A program made the position numbers and the translations under genes. A stretch of 64,000 nucleotides of DNA from a virus. A model generated the notes under the pieces. That model saw only the letters and a program-made list of their open reading frames with translations, had not been told where the DNA came from and did not search any database. Below are positions 25,413 to 64,000 of the stretch, in pieces; position 1 is the stretch's first letter, and each line of letters begins with the position of its first letter. The DNA lies in IMG/VR virus record IMGVR_UViG_3300042387_002391, one strand, 5' to 3'.

Positions 25413-25774
25413 AATTTGTAAGCCTTGACCTTCTTTGATTTTTTAGAAAGTTCAACAACCTGCGTGACATAAAGCAAAACTTTTTCTCCTTTCGGAGTTA
25501 GCATAATTCTGTCATCCGAAGCAATCCAAATCAGATCATAAACTTCGAGCATGTACATAAAATCTCCGGCAAGGTCGCAAGTAATATAATCAACAAGATA
25601 ACAATCCTCATTTACAATACTTTTTAAAGTATCATAGAGCTCTTGATAGGAAAGAGCTTGAAGAATTTGTTCTGCAGAGTACACAAAGGTAATTAGTTCA
25701 CATTCCAAACATTTCAAAAAGATCTGTCTGAACTTCTTTTCCAATTTGCGGTAAAGACCATCCAATTGCTTCAT
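25409..25774 (-). CDS. Hypothetical protein (possible winged helix; true start probably further downstream)
   Basis: IMLTPKGEK wing-like motif; ATGA overlap with the next gene. Confidence 0.45.
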   Translation of the reverse strand: MKQLDGLYRKLEKKFRQIFLKCLECELITFVYSAEQILQALSYQELYDTLKSIVNEDCYLVDYITCDLAGDFMYMLEVYDLIWIASDDRIMLTPKGEKVLLYVTQVVELSKKSKKVKAYKL

Positions 25775-27320
25775 ATAAGCGCTCAGTTGGTTGCGTGACT
25801 AATTTTGCAAACATCCTATCCCAATCTGGCTTCAGACCAAATTCTAAAGGAAGTGTCGAAACGTATGTAATTGCGTCCAAACCGTATTTGTTCTTTGTGC
25901 AATATAACTTCTTAACTTTCTGTCCAGTCTGAATTGCTTCAAATTTATCATCAATTTTAAACTCTTTAATAAGAATATTATAAGCAATTGCTCCTTTGAC
26001 ATGAGAAGGAGTTTTATTTGCAAATTTGTAGAGCGATGATCCTTCTGCATATTTGTCGAGATTGTTAATAGAAGTTCTGGCAGCAACATCATTAGGATCA
26101 AGATTCAAAAATTCATTATAACCTTCTCTATAAACTTCGTTGGTTTGCTTTATATTTTGAGTAAGAAGTGCTGTTTGAATAATTTTTTCAATAAACTTCT
26201 TAACTTTCTTCGGAGTTGTTGAGCGAACAAGTTCAATTCCTGTATATTTAAATTTATCTACAGCAACGCCCTCTTCATCAAGAACGTGAAGAACATATCG
26301 CTTCTTTTGCAAGAATATTCCAACATCCGAAATAACTTCTCTCTTGAAAACATATCGAGGATCAACTGAAAATAATTCTTTCCTAGCCCACTCGAGAATT
26401 TCTGTATTGACTACTTTATCGAGTTCATCAACAATTTCATGAACCTTTTCATTAACCTTTCCATCAATTGTAAGAGGAATGTTTTGCTTTTGGAGAATTG
26501 GATCAATTGTTATATAAACAGAATTATGAACAAGAATGTCATTAGCAAAGAAAGTATGCTCTGTGTCATCTGCCATTTCAATATCATAAACATATTCATC
26601 TTCAAACTCTCCAATGTGTTCTACTGAAGTAATATCAACAATTAAAGGGGTTCTGTTTACATTTACAACAAATTTATCAGTATCTTTGCAAACTTGCTTT
26701 GGAGGCAATCTCAACAAAGTATTGTCTCTCCAAACCATGCAACCATGATCTTCTGTCATTATTACTTCGTTGCCATTTGCACAAACTTTATATTTGCCTT
26801 TTGAAACTTTGTGACGAATGAGCTTTTTTATTTTTCCAAAAACAATTTCGTGATTTTCGGAATTATAAGTCAAACATTGCAAATCGATGTCAGAAACATC
26901 CAAAATTTCATGACCAAATTGTGAGAGGTCTGTTGGACTGTTTTTGAATTTTTCATACAAGTCACCAATGCAAATATCCCCTTTATTAGTGGTTATAACA
27001 GTGCTAAAAATTTCACTGTCCGTATCGCCATATTTGGTAACTGACTCAGAAATGCCGTATTTTTCTCTTACAAAATTGTCAAGAATGTTTCCTCCAGCCT
27101 TGGCAACGCTTTGGCCAGTTGCTGTAATAGATGAGGCATGATCCAAGTCCATCAAAGACGAGTGTTTGTTAGACGTGACACCATAGGCGCTGTTCAAGAG
27201 CACCTTCAAAGCGGCATTAAGATTGTTGTAGTGGGTTATACTCCATACCATTTTCTTCTCTAATTCCTTCAACTCTTCTAGAGTCATTTCTTGATAGGAT
27301 TTTTTTGTCATATGGTTCAA
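25698..27320 (-). CDS. gp43: Family B DNA polymerase fragment C (fingers-2, palm, thumb) with intein
   Basis: KVLLNSAYG, YGDTD|S, KKRY and GIELVRS motifs; clamp-binding-like tail DLFEMF. Confidence 0.92.
   Translation of the reverse strand: MNHMTKKSYQEMTLEELKELEKKMVWSITHYNNLNAALKVLLNSAYGVTSNKHSSLMDLDHASSITATGQSVAKAGGNILDNFVREKYGISESVTKYGDTDSEIFSTVITTNKGDICIGDLYEKFKNSPTDLSQFGHEILDVSDIDLQCLTYNSENHEIVFGKIKKLIRHKVSKGKYKVCANGNEVIMTEDHGCMVWRDNTLLRLPPKQVCKDTDKFVVNVNRTPLIVDITSVEHIGEFEDEYVYDIEMADDTEHTFFANDILVHNSVYITIDPILQKQNIPLTIDGKVNEKVHEIVDELDKVVNTEILEWARKELFSVDPRYVFKREVISDVGIFLQKKRYVLHVLDEEGVAVDKFKYTGIELVRSTTPKKVKKFIEKIIQTALLTQNIKQTNEVYREGYNEFLNLDPNDVAARTSINNLDKYAEGSSLYKFANKTPSHVKGAIAYNILIKEFKIDDKFEAIQTGQKVKKLYCTKNKYGLDAITYVSTLPLEFGLKPDWDRMFAKLVTQPTERLYEAIGWSLPQIGKEVQTDLFEMFGM
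26523..27017 (-). mobile_element. Cis mini-intein (165 aa) at the polB YGDTD|S site
   Basis: Ser start, MTEDH block B, FANDILVHN|S end. Confidence 0.9.
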
Positions 27321-28524
27321 AATATTTTAAGTCTTCGTCTGTTAAATTTAACACGATGTCGATTACTCGTTCGTCTTCTATCTTAGCATTCTTTTTCTTA
27401 TTTTCTACTGAAGTTAACATTTGTAGGTTTTTAAAGTGTGACATTTTTTGGGGATCAATGTCGTGCTCAAAGCCGTAAATTTTAGGTAGAACATGGTCTA
27501 TGTGAAACTTCTTTAATCCTCTCGGAAGATTGTCGGGATTAATAACATTTCTGTGGAGTCTATATGATATGGTCGTATAATACTCTACTAAAAATTTGTA
27601 TTCTGCCCACTTTTCAGGATCTCTATGTTTTCTATTGCTTAGTCCTGTATATGTCCATCTACATCTTTCGCTACAAAAATCACGATAACCTGTATTAAGC
27701 GTTTTAAACTCACAAGGCTTATTGCAAAAAAGACATTCGTCAGGTTTATCTTTTTCATACATGAAAAGATGATACGATTCAGGTTTTGTTTTTGCTGGAT
27801 ATTCTTTTACAATTTTCGAATGAATTGAAGGAAAGTAATGTTCTACGAAATACGTCATCGAACAATAATCGATCTTATTGAGCTCTGTAATAAATTCGTG
27901 CAAGTTTTTCTCATCGTGTTTGTTAGCAAATTCTGCAAGTGCTTGATATGAGTATCCCACCGACAATGTTTGAAACTGCAAGTGTTTGCCGTTGCAAATT
28001 ATTGGTTCTATATCATGATAATAACAGTAAAGAGCTTCCCTGTTATGTTTGCATTTTTTTCTAATTTCTTTGAGTTTTTTGTATTCGTCAGGAAAGGCTA
28101 GTTTAGCAACATCGATCAATTGTACTCCTGAAAGTTTATTGTCAGCGCATACCTTTATTATGTCTTTCAGCGAACTTTTGTTGTTGGTATTTTCGATGAG
28201 AACATGCACATTAACGTTTTTCCAAACATACTTGGTGGAAACTATAATGTCGTTATAAATCAACGGTGTATAATTTTTTTCTGTAAAAGAAATTTTTTTA
28301 AACTCGCCGCTTACGGTTTTATAGTACACTGTCTTTCCTTCAACCTTTTTCCAAAGATCCGGATAATCTGATTTAATCTTAGCAAAACTATCTTTGGTGT
28401 AGTTTGCGTTAATAAATTTTCTTGGAGTAGAAAGAGTTTTTGTAATCAACTCTACCAACTCATTATTTTCTTCAGAACTTCCGTAAGTAGGGTTTTCGCT
28501 ATTGTTACTATTATCAATTATCAT
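27217..28524 (-). mobile_element. Free-standing HNH homing endonuclease gene inside polB
   Basis: HIDHVLP...NLQMLTSVENKKK; CLFC..F....GYRDFC module. Confidence 0.85.
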
Positions 28525-28548: not shown

Positions 28549-29841
28549 TTATTTTTCTTTGGATTTAATAGCCTTTTTGATTTTGGCGAGCTCTTGCTTA
28601 AAATAATTCATCTGATCCTTACTTTCTACACGCTCTTTGTAGATCTGATCGATTAGATTTGGAAGAATACCTTTGGTTTTTTGACTATACAATACTCCAG
28701 CCTTAGTGAGTGCTACATTTTCTTTGACTAGGAATTCTTTAAATTTTTGTCCCGAAAGCGTATGAATCTTGCCATTCAAAAGCCTTATCGAAATTTCTCC
28801 TTTTGGATCATTAGCAATATTCCCGAAATCTCCTTGAACAACTTTCCCTAATTTTGTTTCTGGAGAAATGTTTAATGTAATAATAGTATTGGGATATAGT
28901 GAATTAACGTCAAAACTCACAATCGACTTTTGAATACCTCTTTCTGGATCTCTTACAAACCCTCCTTCAAAAGCTTCTCTGTCAAGATTGTTCGGAAAGG
29001 TGGGAATAACCATTCCTTGTTTATGAGCCTGAATAGCAACTGCTCCCGTAACAACTGCAACTTTTCCGAGGGCTGCTTCAAAATTTGTGCATCCCTTATA
29101 AGCAATCATTCTAGCAATTTCCAAGAATTTGAGCTTTTCTTCAAGCTTTACGAGCAAATGCACATCTTGAATATTGTAATCTACAAACAATTTCCAGTCT
29201 GTATGAGCCAATTCACCTAAGCTAACTGCATTATAAGCAATCTTTCCTTCTCCGAGTTCAAGTTCAGCAATATAATTTAAACTAAACGATTCTTTCTCTC
29301 CAGGCGAAAAGGCTTTATAAAGATCCATGTAATCAATCAAAGACACTCCGCTAATCGACCATACAGTAATTTCTTTACCCATGTCAGTAAAGACTTTCCT
29401 TCCTCTCACATTTCCAACTGGCGACAACTGTTTTACGAAGTCGTCGCCAAAAATTCTCGTAAATCGATTAATGATATAAGGAAAGTCAAACCCAGAAGAA
29501 TTCCAACCTGAAGCAATATCTGGATAATCGCTCTTCCAAAAATCTACAAATTGCAAGATCAAATCTTGCTCATCCTTACATCTGTGATAAATGCAATCAG
29601 GAAGAGTTGGAGTATATTGCTCCTTAAGTCCCCAAGTATGAGTTGCTTTGGTTAAGGTATCATAAATTGTTATCAAATTGATAGGAACGGCTGCTCTCTC
29701 AGGAACTGGGAACTGTCCTCTCTTTGCGTAACAAGTTTGAGAGTAGCTAACCCATTTGTGCTGTTCTTCATCATACACCTCATATTCTTCTTTATCAGAA
29801 AGTGTTAAAAAATTTTCTATGCTAATTTGTTGTTCTGTCAT
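28549..29841 (-). CDS. gp43: Family B DNA polymerase fragment B (exonuclease II/III, motif A, fingers-1)
   Basis: GWNSSGFDFPY, YNIQDV, FDVNSLYP motifs; ends in the fingers helix. Confidence 0.92.
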   Translation of the reverse strand: MTEQQISIENFLTLSDKEEYEVYDEEQHKWVSYSQTCYAKRGQFPVPERAAVPINLITIYDTLTKATHTWGLKEQYTPTLPDCIYHRCKDEQDLILQFVDFWKSDYPDIASGWNSSGFDFPYIINRFTRIFGDDFVKQLSPVGNVRGRKVFTDMGKEITVWSISGVSLIDYMDLYKAFSPGEKESFSLNYIAELELGEGKIAYNAVSLGELAHTDWKLFVDYNIQDVHLLVKLEEKLKFLEIARMIAYKGCTNFEAALGKVAVVTGAVAIQAHKQGMVIPTFPNNLDREAFEGGFVRDPERGIQKSIVSFDVNSLYPNTIITLNISPETKLGKVVQGDFGNIANDPKGEISIRLLNGKIHTLSGQKFKEFLVKENVALTKAGVLYSQKTKGILPNLIDQIYKERVESKDQMNYFKQELAKIKKAIKSKEK

Positions 29842-57268: not shown

Positions 57269-58012
57269 TTAAATTACTGACCAAGATTTGCCTTTATACC
57301 CCATTCCGGCCTGACCCCAAAAACCGTCTTTTGATGCAGGCAAATCACACAAAACTTTTTCAATGTCTCTGAAATTAGATTTGATCGGAATCACGATTAC
57401 GGCAGTGCTGTCGTTAAAATTTGCTGATAAAATTCGAACGCCTTCCTTATCAAAACCGTGTTCTTGAATAGCTTTTTTAAATTCACTTGCTTTGTCAGCA
57501 GAAACAAAAATGCAGTACGAGCTGTCAAATAACTCGCTTGGTAAGTTTGTTGAGGAAACACTTTCTTTAATTGGTTTTTGACCTGTAAGAGCAGCCATTG
57601 TTCTTACATGCACTCTGTCCTTTTCTTTTTCCGTTTCAGAAAGATCTTCGTAAGGAACGTGCTGAGCAGCATTCCACTCACCTTTTGGATTGCGTCTCAT
57701 CCATTCGTCATGAATGTATTTTGCAGCAGCTTCTTCGTCTCCCTTAAATTTATTTACAGCATCAAAAGCTGCTTTTCCTGCTGCTAGATTTTCTTTTTGC
57801 CAATCAGGATGTAATTTTTCAAAGGGAACGTTGATATTCCCTTCTGTTCCGTCAGAATTTTTCTTAATTCTTTCTTTTTTGCCTGTAGGATCAAAATTTT
57901 TGCGCCACTCTTCATGAGCTTTTGAAGCAAATTGTACAATAGCAGGATTCGAGTTTTCAACGAGAAGATGCTCGTTAATAATTTGCTTGAAGAGTGTATC
58001 GAATTTCGTCAT
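57269..58012 (-). CDS. RyR-repeat-like protein with KFDTLFKQIINE leader
   Basis: Two H.EW...VP(F/Y)E.L....K repeats. Confidence 0.65.
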   Translation of the reverse strand: MTKFDTLFKQIINEHLLVENSNPAIVQFASKAHEEWRKNFDPTGKKERIKKNSDGTEGNINVPFEKLHPDWQKENLAAGKAAFDAVNKFKGDEEAAAKYIHDEWMRRNPKGEWNAAQHVPYEDLSETEKEKDRVHVRTMAALTGQKPIKESVSSTNLPSELFDSSYCIFVSADKASEFKKAIQEHGFDKEGVRILSANFNDSTAVIVIPIKSNFRDIEKVLCDLPASKDGFWGQAGMGYKGKSWSVI

Positions 58013-58040: not shown

Positions 58041-58517
58041 TCAAAAATTTTCCAAGTCTACATTGAAGTTTCGGTCAAGTTCTTTGTCAAGTTTGCGGCG
58101 CTGTGCATCCCTAACGTGTCGAGGCACCGATTGAGCTGGTTTTGGCTTTGAGCTTGCGTGCTGAGGTGCTGGTTGTGCTGGTTCCAGCTTTGGTCTTACG
58201 CGAGGATGATCCTGTCCAACAGCTGGAGCCTCAAATCGCTTATTATCAACTTTGATTAGTTTGTTTTCTCCTGTAGCTTTGTACATTTGATTATTGAACT
58301 CGTAGTAATATGTCTTGTTTTTGTCTTTTGAGTAATCTCTAAGAATACCAGCTAAAAGGTGTAAATCTGTCCATATTGCTGGTATGAACGGAGACTCCTC
58401 AGTTCCCTCTCCGCTTTGGACTACGCTACTTAATCCCTTACCAAAAACCTCACTTTCCCAACCTTTATCTAGTTCTTCGTTAATAATTTGCTTGTAGAGT
58501 GTGTCGAATTTTGTCAT
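58041..58517 (-). CDS. Hypothetical protein with KFDTLYKQIINE leader
   Basis: First ~40 nt nearly identical to the start of 57269-58012. Confidence 0.6.
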   Translation of the reverse strand: MTKFDTLYKQIINEELDKGWESEVFGKGLSSVVQSGEGTEESPFIPAIWTDLHLLAGILRDYSKDKNKTYYYEFNNQMYKATGENKLIKVDNKRFEAPAVGQDHPRVRPKLEPAQPAPQHASSKPKPAQSVPRHVRDAQRRKLDKELDRNFNVDLENF

Positions 58518-59057: not shown

Positions 59058-59471
59058 TTAACCTTTTGCAGAACTAATAATATACATCTTAAGTCTTCCA
59101 GAAAGGTCGTTGAGGACTCCAGCTGCTCTCACGATTTCAGCAGATTTGCCTGAAATTCCTTGAAAAGGAGTATTTGGTTTTTCCAAAGAAACTACCAATT
59201 TTTGCAAGCAGTCGCCATTTGTATTAAGAAGAAGTTCAGCAAGTTCGTCAAGTTTGTTTGTGTAATCTAACAAAGTCATTCCGGAAGGAGCTGCTGCTTC
59301 TTCTGTTGCTGGTTCAGGAGCTGGTTGTGGCATTGGTTCAACGTCACCTTTAAAATCTTCTGGATTTGCTTCAGTTGTTTCGTTGCCAGCTTCTTTAGGA
59401 GCTTCCTCTGCGGAAACTTCTTTATCTTGCTCGTTTAGATATACACGTTTGTAAAGTTCATCGAATTTCAT
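59058..59471 (-). CDS. Acidic protein with KFDELYKRVYLNE leader
   Basis: TAAATA-N5-ATG. Confidence 0.6.
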   Translation of the reverse strand: MKFDELYKRVYLNEQDKEVSAEEAPKEAGNETTEANPEDFKGDVEPMPQPAPEPATEEAAAPSGMTLLDYTNKLDELAELLLNTNGDCLQKLVVSLEKPNTPFQGISGKSAEIVRAAGVLNDLSGRLKMYIISSAKG

Positions 59472-60628: not shown

Positions 60629-60843
60629 GAGTGCACCGCCACATCTTCAATAAGAAACAAATCAAGTCGATAACCAACCTGCCGAAGTGTTCCAGTCATC
60701 CTCTTGCCTTCATAAGTCCATTTAATCATATCTCCGTCTTCATATTCCATCGAGGAATCTCTCAAGGCATTTTCTGTGTAAATTTCTGGATCAAAATAAA
60801 ATTTATCCCCGTCTTTGTAAACGTTATTTGTCTGGTTACTCAT
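60625..60843 (-). CDS. Hypothetical protein
   Basis: 72-aa ORF coupled to its neighbours. Confidence 0.5.
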   Translation of the reverse strand: MSNQTNNVYKDGDKFYFDPEIYTENALRDSSMEYEDGDMIKWTYEGKRMTGTLRQVGYRLDLFLIEDVAVHS

Positions 60844-61295
60844 TTGCTGTCCGGTTGTTCTTGTTTATGATATTGCATAAGCCATTGTGTTAGATGTTTT
60901 TTGTCTGATTTTGGGTACGAAAATTTATAACGGCCCCACTTTTTCGTGTTCACGTATTTGTTCCAAAGAGAGCTTGCAATCTTGTCGATCTGATTCTCAA
61001 TGTTGAATTGAAGCATGGGACTAATGTCTTCCATATTTCCTGCATGATAATCAGTCCATATATCATTCAGCACTGCTTCGTGGTGAGCTAGTTCGTGGAA
61101 AAATACATGCAAGAGGCGCTTCTTTGTTTGCTTGTTGTTGATGAAAATGCTCCTTTTTTCGAAGTCATACAAGCCTCCAACGCGCTTTGCTTGATCATTG
61201 AAGGACACTCTTGTTACTTTGTGTTCTTTTGCAATAATACAAATAAATTGCCGAAGCAGCTTTTTAGTAATTCTGCAGCTATCAAAAACCTTCAT
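60840..61295 (-). CDS. HExxH metallopeptidase-like protein (ImmA/IrrE-like)
   Basis: GLY...IFIN, FHELAH and downstream E. Confidence 0.65.
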   Translation of the reverse strand: MKVFDSCRITKKLLRQFICIIAKEHKVTRVSFNDQAKRVGGLYDFEKRSIFINNKQTKKRLLHVFFHELAHHEAVLNDIWTDYHAGNMEDISPMLQFNIENQIDKIASSLWNKYVNTKKWGRYKFSYPKSDKKHLTQWLMQYHKQEQPDSK

Positions 61296-61504
61296 TTGCA
61301 AACAAGCTTAGTTCCAAACAACAAAGACTTTGGAGTAGAATGATTCTGCAAAAGCCAATCATCTCCGACCTTAATAAAGTTTAGCAAAACATCATTGGCA
61401 ACACTTTTTGCTACAATAAGATTTTCTTCTTTTGTCAGCACATCACAGACTTCTGGATGCATTGGCTGACTTTTGAAAAAGTATTGAATGGTTCCTTTAG
61501 ACAT
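61292..61504 (-). CDS. Hypothetical protein (start MSKGTI)
   Basis: TTGACA-N17-TAATAT-N7-ATG. Confidence 0.5.
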   Translation of the reverse strand: MSKGTIQYFFKSQPMHPEVCDVLTKEENLIVAKSVANDVLLNFIKVGDDWLLQNHSTPKSLLFGTKLVCK

Positions 61505-61548: not shown

Positions 61549-61740
61549 TTATTTTTTGTTCATTTCTGCTAGTTCTTTTATTGCATCTTCGAAAGAAACA
61601 AATTTAATTTCTTCTTTCGGAGGAGCTGCTGGTTCTTCATCTTTAATGATGTCCCACATTTGATTTGCAACATCTTGTCTCAATTTTTGAATGGTAGGAT
61701 CTTTTTCGAACTCTACTGCATTTGAACCAAAGGAAAACAT
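61549..61740 (-). CDS. Hypothetical protein
   Basis: 63-aa ORF at the end of the lysis operon. Confidence 0.5.
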   Translation of the reverse strand: MFSFGSNAVEFEKDPTIQKLRQDVANQMWDIIKDEEPAAPPKEEIKFVSFEDAIKELAEMNKK

Positions 61741-61742
61741 AA

Positions 61743-62147
61743 TTATTTTTTAACAAAAATTACAGCAAGCTGCACGAGAGCATTTAATAAGAACACTGCA
61801 ATCGATCCATAAAGAGCCATTGAAGCCTTCCATTTTGTATGTGACTGCTCTTCTACATCAATGCCTCTTTCGATTGCAATGAGTTTTTGACCCAAACCTT
61901 TTTCATCATAAAGCAGATGATCCATACTTTCCTCTAAATCATGCGTGGTTGACATGACTTGAGCTCTCCACATTTTTAGCTCTGTATCAGAAACAGCAAT
62001 CGTTTGCTTGATGTCAGCAATATCCTTATTCATGTTTTGCAACAATTTGTTGTGGTCATCAAGCTGTTGCAAAACCATCAATTGGTACTTAGACCATCCA
62101 TTACCTTCATAATGGTTCATGTTATGTTGTTCAAAATTTTCGTTCAT
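61743..62147 (-). CDS. Coiled-coil protein with C-terminal TM helix (lysis-accessory candidate)
   Basis: ATGA overlap with the PAS-LOV stop at 62144-62147; heptad pattern; hydrophobic C-terminus. Confidence 0.6.
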   Translation of the reverse strand: MNENFEQHNMNHYEGNGWSKYQLMVLQQLDDHNKLLQNMNKDIADIKQTIAVSDTELKMWRAQVMSTTHDLEESMDHLLYDEKGLGQKLIAIERGIDVEEQSHTKWKASMALYGSIAVFLLNALVQLAVIFVKK

Positions 62148-63064
62148 GATATTTTGCTTAGGTGTATGAATCCGCTTTCCGCATTTGGAGACCATTCATA
62201 TTTGATGTCCATTTTATCTGTAATGTCTCTTGCTATTCCGATAAAATTAACGACGACTCCATGTTCAATTACAGCAGAAATTGCAAGTCTGCTATAATAA
62301 ATTTCCCCATTCTTTCTTCTATTTTGAAGAAGAACATCACAGTTTTTTCCTTCTTTGATACACTTGCGAAGCGTAACGAGTGCTCTTGAATTTTTAGTTT
62401 CATCTGTTTGCAACATTCTGCAATTCTGTCCGACTAATTCTTCGCTCGTATAACCAGTAATTTTTTCGAATGCTTTATTAGCATAAACCATTACATTGTC
62501 TTCGTGCTGAGCGTCTGTAATGACAATGCCGTCAGTAGAAGACTCAACAGCTTTTTGAAGTAGTTTGTAGCTATAAACATTATTTGTTCCAAATTGCGTT
62601 AGATCAGAAGCAACACCTACTGTTTGATTTTCTCTTTCGTCGCACAAAGAAAATCTCCACATCAGCTTTACTTTGGATCCGCTCTTTGCAATCCAGTGGT
62701 TAATCAGAGCCTTGTGGCCGTCAAAATATAAAATTTTCTTTTCCTTTAATTCAGCAAAGCGCGCTTTTGTCTCAGCAGCATCAACAGGATCAATAAAATC
62801 CCATAAAACCTTGCCGAGCAACTCGCTTCGCGTATAACCTAGAATTGTGAAGGCAGCATCGCTAATTTTTAAAATCTTTGAGTTCTCGTCCAAGAATACA
62901 ATGATGTCCGGTGAAGCAGCAAAGATTAAAGCAAGTTGGCTTTCGAGCTCGGACAAGTATTTTGACAAACCGTTCAAAGTTTGTTGCCTGCTTTCAATTT
63001 TTTTAAGAATTTGCTCGTTTTCCAAAGACAAATTTACAGGTTTTGTTTTAATTGTTGTTTTCAT
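62144..63064 (-). CDS. Coiled-coil-PAS-LOV sensor protein without output domain
   Basis: PAS-A (SPDIIVFLD...LGYTRSELLGK); PAS-B with GIVITD...YANKAF..TGY..EELVGQNCRMLQ...QN.RKNG...FIGIARDIT. Confidence 0.88.
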   Translation of the reverse strand: MKTTIKTKPVNLSLENEQILKKIESRQQTLNGLSKYLSELESQLALIFAASPDIIVFLDENSKILKISDAAFTILGYTRSELLGKVLWDFIDPVDAAETKARFAELKEKKILYFDGHKALINHWIAKSGSKVKLMWRFSLCDERENQTVGVASDLTQFGTNNVYSYKLLQKAVESSTDGIVITDAQHEDNVMVYANKAFEKITGYTSEELVGQNCRMLQTDETKNSRALVTLRKCIKEGKNCDVLLQNRRKNGEIYYSRLAISAVIEHGVVVNFIGIARDITDKMDIKYEWSPNAESGFIHLSKIS

Positions 63065-63675
63065 GCGACATTCTCAATCAATTTTGCTTCCGCTTCTCTA
63101 CGTTCTAATAAACCATTTAAATTTTTGCCAACCCATAATCTCTTCATTTTGCGGATTTCTTGAGCAATGTTTTTATAATCTTTTTTAGGAATGAGAACTC
63201 TAATGTTTCTCATCTCGAGTCTGCTGTCGCCTTTGAGGCTGGTTCCTCTATTAAAGACCAGCGAAACGATTGCTCCATAAGCATCTGGATGAAGATCAGC
63301 CAATCCAGGAAAGGCTTTTTCAGCAAGGTTTGTAAATTTTGGCCAAGTAAGTTTCTGAAAAATTTCCTGTGCTTTGTCCCAACTAACTGTAATGCCACTT
63401 GCTCTGAGCACTTTTGTGTATTCTTTTCCTTCTTCTCTTGTTTTTCCTGAAGCTTTCTGAATGAGTCTGATTTGATCTTTTGGAAGAAATGAAAATATTT
63501 CTGCCAGTTCGCTTTCTGAATAATAAGCACAATCGACTCCAATTGCAATTGTCGGACCAGAAGCTCCACCTGGCCAGGTAAACTTAGAAAGATACTTTTC
63601 GTAATAAGCTTTTCCGCCACCTACTTCATAATCATAAAGTAGTTCAAGAGTTTTTGCAGACGGCTTAGAGCTCAT
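63061..63675 (-). CDS. Endolysin (pesticin-C/T4-lysozyme-like muramidase)
   Basis: E..., WPGGASGPTIAIG.D, AIVSLVFNRG, GLLERREAE motifs; AAGGAGG RBS before the ATG at 63675. Confidence 0.85.
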   Translation of the reverse strand: MSSKPSAKTLELLYDYEVGGGKAYYEKYLSKFTWPGGASGPTIAIGVDCAYYSESELAEIFSFLPKDQIRLIQKASGKTREEGKEYTKVLRASGITVSWDKAQEIFQKLTWPKFTNLAEKAFPGLADLHPDAYGAIVSLVFNRGTSLKGDSRLEMRNIRVLIPKKDYKNIAQEIRKMKRLWVGKNLNGLLERREAEAKLIENVA

Positions 63676-64000
63676 AATCATCCTCCTTTGCGTTTGTATC
63701 AATTACTGTAACTTCATTGATTGATTCTGATGTTCCTTTAAGAGAAGCATTTGAAGTGCTTCCGTATTTCAAATCAACAACCATTTCAGCACCAACATAT
63801 GAAGCTATAATAATTGCTAAAATTTCAATAGTTTTTGAAAATATTGTAACAAACCCCGTAATATACTCTGGAGGAGCTGAAGGAATTAAAAACAGAAGAC
63901 CGATTGTCGAGAAGTAAAAAAAGGCAAGAATTACAACAGACGTAAAGACGATATAAAACTTGCTTGACTCGAGATGATTAAGATTCCTGAGTCTCTGAAT
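63665..64000 (-). CDS. Partial CDS (5' end outside window), two-TM holin-like membrane protein
   Basis: Manual translation: ..SKFYIVFTSVVILAFFYFSTIGLLFLIP..ITGFVTIFSKTIEILAIIIASYVGA..EDDYEL*; overlaps the endolysin start. Confidence 0.6.
   Translation of the reverse strand: MQRLRNLNHLESSKFYIVFTSVVILAFFYFSTIGLLFLIPSAPPEYITGFVTIFSKTIEILAIIIASYVGAEMVVDLKYGSTSNASLKGTSESINEVTVIDTNAKEDDYEL

Follow-up and report, generated by a model that had tools for sequence, protein, structure and literature searches.

The right-hand end of the 64,000-nucleotide (nt) stretch of the IMG/VR virus record IMGVR_UViG_3300042387_002391 (one strand; here, the window, to which all coordinates refer) carries a minus-strand cassette in which a holin-like gene and an endolysin gene are followed by genes for a coiled-coil-PAS-LOV protein and a small helical protein. 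We tentatively interpret the last two genes as an optional two-gene sensor module that is located at the distal end of a lysis operon and tunes lysis in uncultured aquatic T4-like myoviruses. The two genes form a unit, and this unit is optional. Gene order leaves the chances about even that the pair modulates lysis through a role in its timing.

The listing of open reading frames (ORFs) in the window confirmed four overlapping minus-strand ORFs, which an earlier reading of the bare sequence (here, the original prediction) had described as a single unit. When the junctions were read directly, ATGA overlaps were found at positions 63061-63064, between the lysozyme and PAS-LOV genes, and at 62144-62147, between the PAS-LOV gene and that of its 134-residue neighbor, exactly as had been proposed for these three genes, which are translationally coupled. 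The holin-like gene shares its last 11 nt with the lysozyme gene. We preferred ATG 63675 as the lysozyme start over the longer alternative, TTG 63702, because AAGGAGG lies 6 nt upstream of the former. The gene for the 134-residue protein starts at ATG 62147, as in its homologues, and not at 62195.

The PAS-LOV protein almost certainly contains a genuine LOV-derived domain with the adduct-forming cysteine. Pfam searches detected two PAS stretches in the protein, with PAS_9 at 111 bits. In a phmmer search against the PDB, residues 159 to 290 aligned over their full length with the short LOV proteins 5luv and 3sw1 (E ~2e-24) and also with YtvA (2pr5; E = 2e-16), in agreement with the original claim that the second PAS domain follows a YtvA-type LOV domain along its length. 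The top PDB matches were all LOV proteins (short LOV proteins, YtvA, aureochrome, and phototropin, with E values from 2e-24 to 1e-13, and LOV histidine kinases). An AlphaFold2 model built from 103 homologues had a mean predicted local distance difference test (pLDDT) score of 81, with values above 90 in the LOV core, and consisted of a long helix (residues 12 to 50), a first PAS domain, PAS-A (54 to 154), the LOV domain (~164 to 280), and two short terminal strands. Using Foldseek, the LOV core was superposed on 9vf7 at 0.9-1.0 Å over 119-120 columns with 42% identity, while the whole model grouped with the tandem-PAS sensors DosP, 6hmj (a PAS-ANTAR-LOV receptor), and PpsR. The motif GQNCRMLQ, which had been one of the grounds for the LOV call, occupies residues 212 to 219, and its cysteine, Cys215, falls on the codon that had been assigned to it (Table 1). 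Cys215, Arg216, Gln219, Arg233, and Asn248 are in place, and the two arginines align with the flavin-phosphate arginines of a solved short LOV protein. As had also been noted, the protein has no output domain detectable in Pfam and PHROG searches.

The genes preceding the sensor very probably constitute a real lysis operon. The part of the holin-like ORF that lies in the window encodes two hydrophobic helices and a charged C-terminal tail, as judged by hydropathy, and its full-length homologues in related contigs (L001 and L006) are 143-158 amino acids (aa) long. This architecture of two transmembrane (TM) helices and a charged tail, with an endolysin as neighbor, would fit a holin; Pfam and PHROG searches gave no match to any known holin family. 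The muramidase call was sound: the protein matches Pfam Phage_lysozyme (32 bits) and PHROG endolysin families. It has no signal-anchor-release (SAR) or signal segment (hydropathy maximum, 0.85).

We compared 43 related loci (given here by L numbers) from IMG/VR, metagenomes, and assemblies. An endolysin gene lies directly upstream of the pair and on the same strand in all 25 main-clade loci that have upstream sequence. The enzyme in this slot is a GH24-like lysozyme in 16 loci and an unrelated M15 peptidase in the other 9 (Peptidase_M15_4, matching the endolysin family phrog_17001 at 1e-69 and sometimes accompanied by PG_binding_1), and locus L029 has a third endolysin type, GH108, beside a homologue of the same 2-TM protein. 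Whichever of the three families occupies the slot, it always adjoins this 2-TM protein. Nonhomologous endolysins that replace one another next to a single small 2-TM protein mark a holin-endolysin cassette, and we therefore take this to be a real lysis cassette. Upstream of the holin-like gene, relatives encode a protein that combines a lipobox with a C-terminal TM helix, as u-spanins do; in L006, a small lipoprotein has weak matches to Rz-like spanins (E = 0.0015). A spanin gene of the window phage itself would be located past the right-hand edge of the window. As a u-spanin-type protein is present upstream in relatives, the outer membrane step would be accounted for without the 134-residue protein.

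Whatever the surroundings, all 34 loci that are long enough to include it have the gene for the 134-residue protein immediately after the PAS-LOV gene. The AlphaFold2 model of this protein (pLDDT, 86) has two long helices, spanning residues 20 to 80 and 85 to 133. The last ~25 residues are hydrophobic, with a hydropathy of 2.31 in the window and ~1.7 in other members, and are a probable tail anchor. A signal sequence is lacking, and the helical rod is therefore expected on the cytoplasmic side, together with the PAS-LOV protein. The family is small, with 178 clusters at the 90% identity level and 86 representatives at the 50% level; it is confined to phages, and all members are 50-176 aa long. 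A fused form of the two proteins was not found among the matches listed, in which these 86 representatives keep to that size range and the PAS-LOV homologues do not exceed 322 aa. The 134-residue protein had no match in 50,697 phage records, and three distant homologues (P0273, P0278, and P0290) had no informative neighbors. Co-folding of the 306-residue protein (103-row alignment) with the 134-residue protein (65 rows) and flavin mononucleotide gave a score of 0.07, below the mark, which argues neither for nor against binding.

Beside the very distant homologue P0278, an upstream stretch (L045:3573-3881) resembles only the N-terminal helix and the start of PAS-A (35% identity; E = 7.5e-14). 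Judging by this arrangement, the minimal pair may be a helix/PAS-A protein with a helical anchor.

The PAS-LOV family itself consists of 161 homologue clusters at 90% identity, all of them metagenomic, whose members have a length of ~300 aa and share 44-94% identity with the window protein. Viral proteins with PAS domains are mostly histidine kinases, with a few short phage PAS proteins, and none of them is close to this family. Cultured phages gave neither a DNA match to the window nor a member of the PAS-LOV family, nor did they match the 134-residue protein. Matches labeled Listeria, E. coli, and Salmonella were rejected as family members because they are LOV or Aer genes of host type, located in P1-like records or in fragments without annotation.

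We propose the following mechanism for the module. The 306-residue protein would be cytoplasmic and would probably dimerize through its long N-terminal helix as a coiled coil, and the 134-residue protein would be an elongated helical rod whose hydrophobic C-terminal helix fixes it to the inner membrane. Produced in translational coupling with the endolysin, the two proteins would act as a pair at the inner membrane and tune the firing of the 2-TM holin, in either an antiholin-like or a prolysis manner. In the window lineage, the LOV pocket probably still holds flavin, and the input would be either blue light, through the Cys215 adduct, or flavin reduction. From the β-sheet, the signal would pass to the conserved C-terminal tail or to the N-terminal helix, which are the likely output surfaces. 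Members that lack the cysteine but have an intact pocket could signal by flavin reduction, and members without the pocket or without the LOV domain may act constitutively or through PAS-A. Since the pair is placed against three endolysin types, twice in different orientations, it is most simply explained as a lysis accessory, and since lysis evidently proceeds without it in close relatives, it would be a regulator and not a core part of the cassette.

Several observations weigh against a lysis-tuning sensor module, the first of which concern its genomic context. No sequence similarity between the cassette proteins and a known antiholin, holin, or releasin was found in Pfam, PHROG, or phage records. 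In loci L047 to L049, the holin-like protein is 67-73% and the lysozyme 73-75% identical to that of the window, and the pair is missing. In the sister clade, the pair lies apart from lysis genes, between genes on the opposite strand, in seven of eight loci; in the eighth, L029, it abuts the GH108 and holin-like genes convergently.

The pair-less relatives and the stand-alone loci would be expected if the pair were an accessory membrane module unrelated to lysis timing, serving, for example, superinfection exclusion, takeover of the host envelope or signaling, or counterdefense, and merely riding at the end of the late operon in one clade. Accessory genes are generally known to insert often at the ends of late operons, the pair is missing from close relatives whose lysis genes are the same, and in L007, L010, L030, L031, L039, and L042, it stands alone and self-contained between opposite-strand genes (HNH, metallophosphatase, and structural-like genes). 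However, such a module would not be expected to show direct linkage, with overlapping stop and start codons, in 25 of 25 main-clade loci across exchanges of GH24-like and M15 enzymes. In L029, moreover, the pair again abuts a holin-like gene and an endolysin, of the third type, this time convergently, and repeated independent juxtaposition of this kind is hard to explain by chance. We consider an unrelated module unlikely, although it is, by a narrow margin, the most likely of the three rival explanations.

The second set of contrary observations concerns the flavin pocket. In the window copy, the Iβ glutamine is replaced by Ala278 and the Hβ asparagine, the second of the pteridine-binding asparagines, by Ser258. 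Two asparagines (N482 and N492) coordinate the flavin pteridine in AsLOV2 (PMC9098866). The missing glutamine does not disqualify the domain, because about 350 natural LOV receptors without it have been reported, one of which was shown to be a working photoreceptor, and the active-site glutamine is dispensable for LOV signaling (PMC9098866). Flavin or light input in the window copy is, from its residues, possible but somewhat short of probable.

Across the family, the pocket is still more variable (positions were counted in 121 sequences; a FastTree tree was built from 115 full-length members with the pocket columns kept in the alignment). The adduct cysteine is kept in 76 of 121 sequences; the replacements include aromatic residues (Phe, Trp, or Tyr; 20 sequences), glycine (15), and alanine (7). 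None of the 121 homologues has the Iβ glutamine, and 101 have A, S, V, or I instead. The Hβ position is asparagine in 67 of the 121 and serine or alanine throughout the window's clade. The canonical set (Cys, Arg/Lys, motif Gln, and Gβ Asn) is present in 46 of 115 members, with at least eight state changes on the tree. Three classes of pocket can be distinguished: canonical (~40%); a class in which Cys is replaced by Gly or Ala and Arg by Lys and every other contact is kept (~17%; NGKFLQ or NAKFLQ, as in NGKFLQ with RNNS); and degenerate (~40%). In P0003, which is 86% identical to the window protein and otherwise intact, including the tail, six of nine flavin positions are changed. Family-wide, the mean majority frequency is lower at the flavin positions (0.56) than in the rest of the LOV domain (0.65). 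The best-conserved parts of the protein are the N-terminal helix and the C-terminal tail (0.75 each, compared to 0.64-0.65 for the PAS domains); the consensus of the tail is KYEWSPNxExGF, in which Trp291, Gly298, and Phe299 are invariant or nearly so. There are also versions that consist of the helix and PAS-A with no LOV domain or tail (L006:2800-3315 and L035:1236-1676, the latter on a TARA contig), and these too have the partner gene directly downstream.

Not all lineages have treated the pocket in this way. The deepest-branching clade, at 42-48% identity, is canonical apart from the glutamine, and the window's subclade has the cysteine in 22 of 23 sequences, all with NCR[MI][LF]Q. Because NCRxLQ, R/K, N, and N have been retained over much divergence, we read the pocket as apparently under selection in some lineages, including the window's, and as given up repeatedly elsewhere without loss of the protein. 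By the same reading, the ancestor of the family would have been a working LOV protein.

A pocket that is retained for its flavin could serve as a sensor of redox or energy state and not of light, with the flavin domain reporting host redox or respiration and coupling holin firing to the metabolic state of the infected cell. The firing of holins generally depends on membrane energization. About one-sixth of the family lacks the cysteine and has Lys for Arg with every other flavin contact kept, and a retained pocket thus does not call for adduct chemistry. LOV domains without the cysteine are able to signal via flavin reduction (PMC4682037). In addition, one canonical copy is on a contig of a genome labeled SulCav, possibly a cave and hence a dark habitat. 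Against this stands the near-complete retention of the cysteine in the window's subclade, which argues for adduct chemistry there, and the pocket-degenerate members (~40%) fit neither light nor redox sensing. On balance, a redox sensor seems improbable to us. Less likely still is a decayed relic, that is, a constitutive scaffold or adaptor that works through the helix, PAS-A, and the tail and whose LOV signature here is a cofactor-less, not-yet-eroded remnant: the conservation of helix and tail (0.75) above the flavin positions (0.56, the lowest), the repeated loss of the pocket, the LOV-less versions, and Ser258 and Ala278 in the window copy would all suit it, but NCRxLQ, R/K, N, and N are nearly intact in the deepest clade (42-48% identity) and in several of the inner ones, which implies selection on the pocket in those lineages, the window's (22 of 23) included.

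The explanation that we tentatively favor remains an optional sensor module that tunes lysis. The original prediction had proposed lysis gated by light or redox state. Its foundations (a LOV fold with the cysteine, a real lysis cassette, and linkage in 25 of 25 loci) proved solid, while the gating itself is called into question by the optional nature of the pair, the losses of the pocket, and the stand-alone sister loci. Homologues mostly without the cysteine or unlinked to lysis genes had been named as evidence that would speak against it, and the family shows something of both, with the cysteine in 76 of 121 sequences and seven of eight sister loci unlinked. Given the pocket losses, LOV-less loci, stand-alone pairs, and pair-less relatives, light input, if real, is an optional extra. 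A photoreceptor-gated switch, in which blue light acting on the LOV domain would change how the pair holds or releases the holin in the lineages that keep the pocket, including the window's, is in our estimation an unlikely though specific form of the proposal.

Among known systems, the short LOV proteins of Pseudomonas putida (PpSB1-LOV, PpSB2-LOV, and W619_1-LOV; 3sw1, 7a6p, and 5luv) are the best matches (E ~2e-24; ~36% identity), with a root mean square deviation of 1.9-2.5 Å between their LOV cores and that of the phage model. They share NCRxLQ and both arginines, have no fused effector, and signal via protein contacts. The phage protein differs from them in its additional N-terminal coiled coil and second PAS domain, in a short conserved β tail in place of the Jα helix, in the lack of the Iβ glutamine and of one asparagine, and in its constant association with a neighboring gene for a helical membrane-anchored protein. 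In the Gln-deficient LOV receptors (LOV-ΔQ; Dietler et al. 2022, PMC9098866), the glutamine is likewise replaced by small, hydrophobic, or polar residues. The example tested there is a diguanylate cyclase, unlike the effector-less phage protein (PMC9098866). The window's clade is, moreover, also altered at the Hβ asparagine, and much of the phage family has lost the rest of the pocket.

Parallels in mode of action can be found further afield. The plant PAS/LOV protein PLP has no enzymatic output domain. According to the title of PMC10291033, this PAS and LOV protein acts by inhibition of another protein, a GDP-L-galactose phosphorylase, and is deactivated by blue light. PLP comes from a eukaryote and has no membrane partner, and homology is demonstrated for the domains only; the parallel is one of possible action and not of membership. 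Among phage proteins, RIII of T4 is a cytoplasmic accessory lysis protein that binds the holin. The T4 antiholin RI is likewise an accessory protein that binds the holin, T, and shifts the time of lysis upon a signal, and it can work in membrane-anchored form (PMC11413866). There is no sequence similarity to RI or RIII, and RI is periplasmic and senses superinfection, whereas the phage sensor here is a cytoplasmic PAS/LOV protein and the 2-TM holin is a different one. The Mu releasin gp25 (DUF2730; PMC9239132) is a membrane-tethered cytoplasmic protein that is encoded with lysis genes and controls endolysin release. It differs in having an N-terminal TM anchor and acting with SAR endolysins, compared to a C-terminal anchor and an endolysin without a SAR segment here, and a Pfam search gave no DUF2730 match for the 134-residue protein. 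Full-text searches of PMC and bioRxiv turned up no paper on a phage lysis cassette with a natural LOV or PAS protein, in agreement with the original statement that no described phage lysis module with a photoreceptor was known.

The features of the cassette are listed in Table 1.

Table 1. Features of the lysis cassette and of the sensor protein, in window coordinates
Feature	Position	Strand	Basis or remark
Holin-like protein, 3' part (111 codons)	63665..64000	minus	ORF and hydropathy; start beyond window edge
Endolysin (GH24-like phage lysozyme), cytoplasmic type	63061..63675	minus	Pfam and PHROG; no hydrophobic N-terminus
306-aa coiled-coil-PAS-LOV protein, no output domain	62144..63064	minus	Pfam, PDB, AlphaFold2, Foldseek
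N-terminal long helix, residues 12-50, probable coiled coil	62915..63031	minus	AlphaFold2 secondary structure
PAS-A domain, residues 54-154	62603..62905	minus	First Pfam PAS stretch and AlphaFold2 model
LOV-type PAS domain, residues 164-285	62210..62575	minus	PDB alignment, motif, AlphaFold2, Foldseek
Cys215 codon, adduct-forming position	62420..62422	minus	Computed from ORF start; alignment to solved LOV proteins
Conserved C-terminal tail, residues 286-300, KYEWSPNAESGF	62165..62209	minus	Homologue alignments; short strands in AlphaFold2 model
134-aa all-helical protein with hydrophobic C-terminus	61743..62147	minus	ATGA overlap, AlphaFold2, hydropathy
Small conserved 63-aa ORF ending the cassette	61549..61740	minus	Homologues in relatives

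The 63-aa ORF that ends the cassette has homologues in L001, L002, L006, L011, L013, L014, L017, L018, and L020. In the pair-less loci L048 and L049, a small ORF of 93 aa directly follows the lysozyme gene, and its C-terminus resembles that of the 63-aa ORF, by eye only. Some 400 nt downstream of the cassette (60840-61301, minus strand) is a gene for a small putative metallopeptidase (DUF6782, IrrE/M78-like, phrog_87), found at the same position in L001 to L006. Two sequences were considered as shared promoters and dropped: TATAAATA shows no enrichment in the window and does not recur consistently before the cassettes, and ATAAGTATTT likewise shows no enrichment in the window. As a separate observation, ATAAGTATTT or a close variant occurs shortly before the start codon both of some cassettes and of some stand-alone pairs (L002, L004, L014, L015, L007, and L031).

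The window phage is a large myovirus that is distantly related to T4-like phages. Its genes include those for a tail sheath, a terminase, a split B-family polymerase, and an SbcC-like nuclease, and the sheath is 27-41% identical to those of T4-like cyanophages and enterobacterial phages. Relatives carry UvsY. No tRNAs were found in the window. The related contigs are mostly from JGI metagenomes with no habitat given, with several labeled marine metagenome and one TARA scaffold; we take many of them to be of freshwater origin. A scan of genome contigs returned only one 5-kb contig of a metagenome-assembled genome, which is not reliable for host assignment.

Elsewhere in the window, the DNA polymerase is divided on the minus strand into an N-terminal part (28549-29841) and a C-terminal part (25698-27320), with a 435-aa ORF (27217-28524) between them. 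The tail-sheath gene has as its neighbor on the opposite strand (800-2662, plus) a 620-aa HNH or homing-endonuclease-like gene. Three neighboring minus-strand genes (57269-58012, 58041-58517, and 59058-59471) share the N-terminal leader M(T)KFD(T/E)L(F/Y)K..(I/L)NE and diverge completely after it. In form, this leader is similar to the sequences that target T4 internal proteins to the capsid, where cleavage follows (L/I)xE.

The timing of lysis is a central fitness decision for a phage. To our knowledge, the lysis regulators described so far (T4 RI/RIII, λ S107, P1 LydB, and Mu releasin) answer either to superinfection or to no external signal at all. With a lysis-tuning sensor module, if confirmed, a phage would for the first time be seen to base its decision to lyse on light or on the redox state of its host, and such a module could help account for the day-night rhythm of viral lysis in surface waters. 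Should the light switch be real, the host could be made to burst at a preferred time of day, for example, so that virions are not released into damaging sunlight. The family offers a natural series of versions with the cysteine, without it, and without the pocket or the whole LOV domain, with the pocket-altered copy at 86% identity as a natural control, and optogenetics would gain a compact, effector-less LOV pair that acts at the membrane. The LOV-derived sensor is probably functional in the window lineage, to judge by its residues, and is dispensable across the family. Even if the light reading fails, the two genes represent an undescribed and widespread accessory pair in the lysis cassettes of uncultured aquatic myoviruses.

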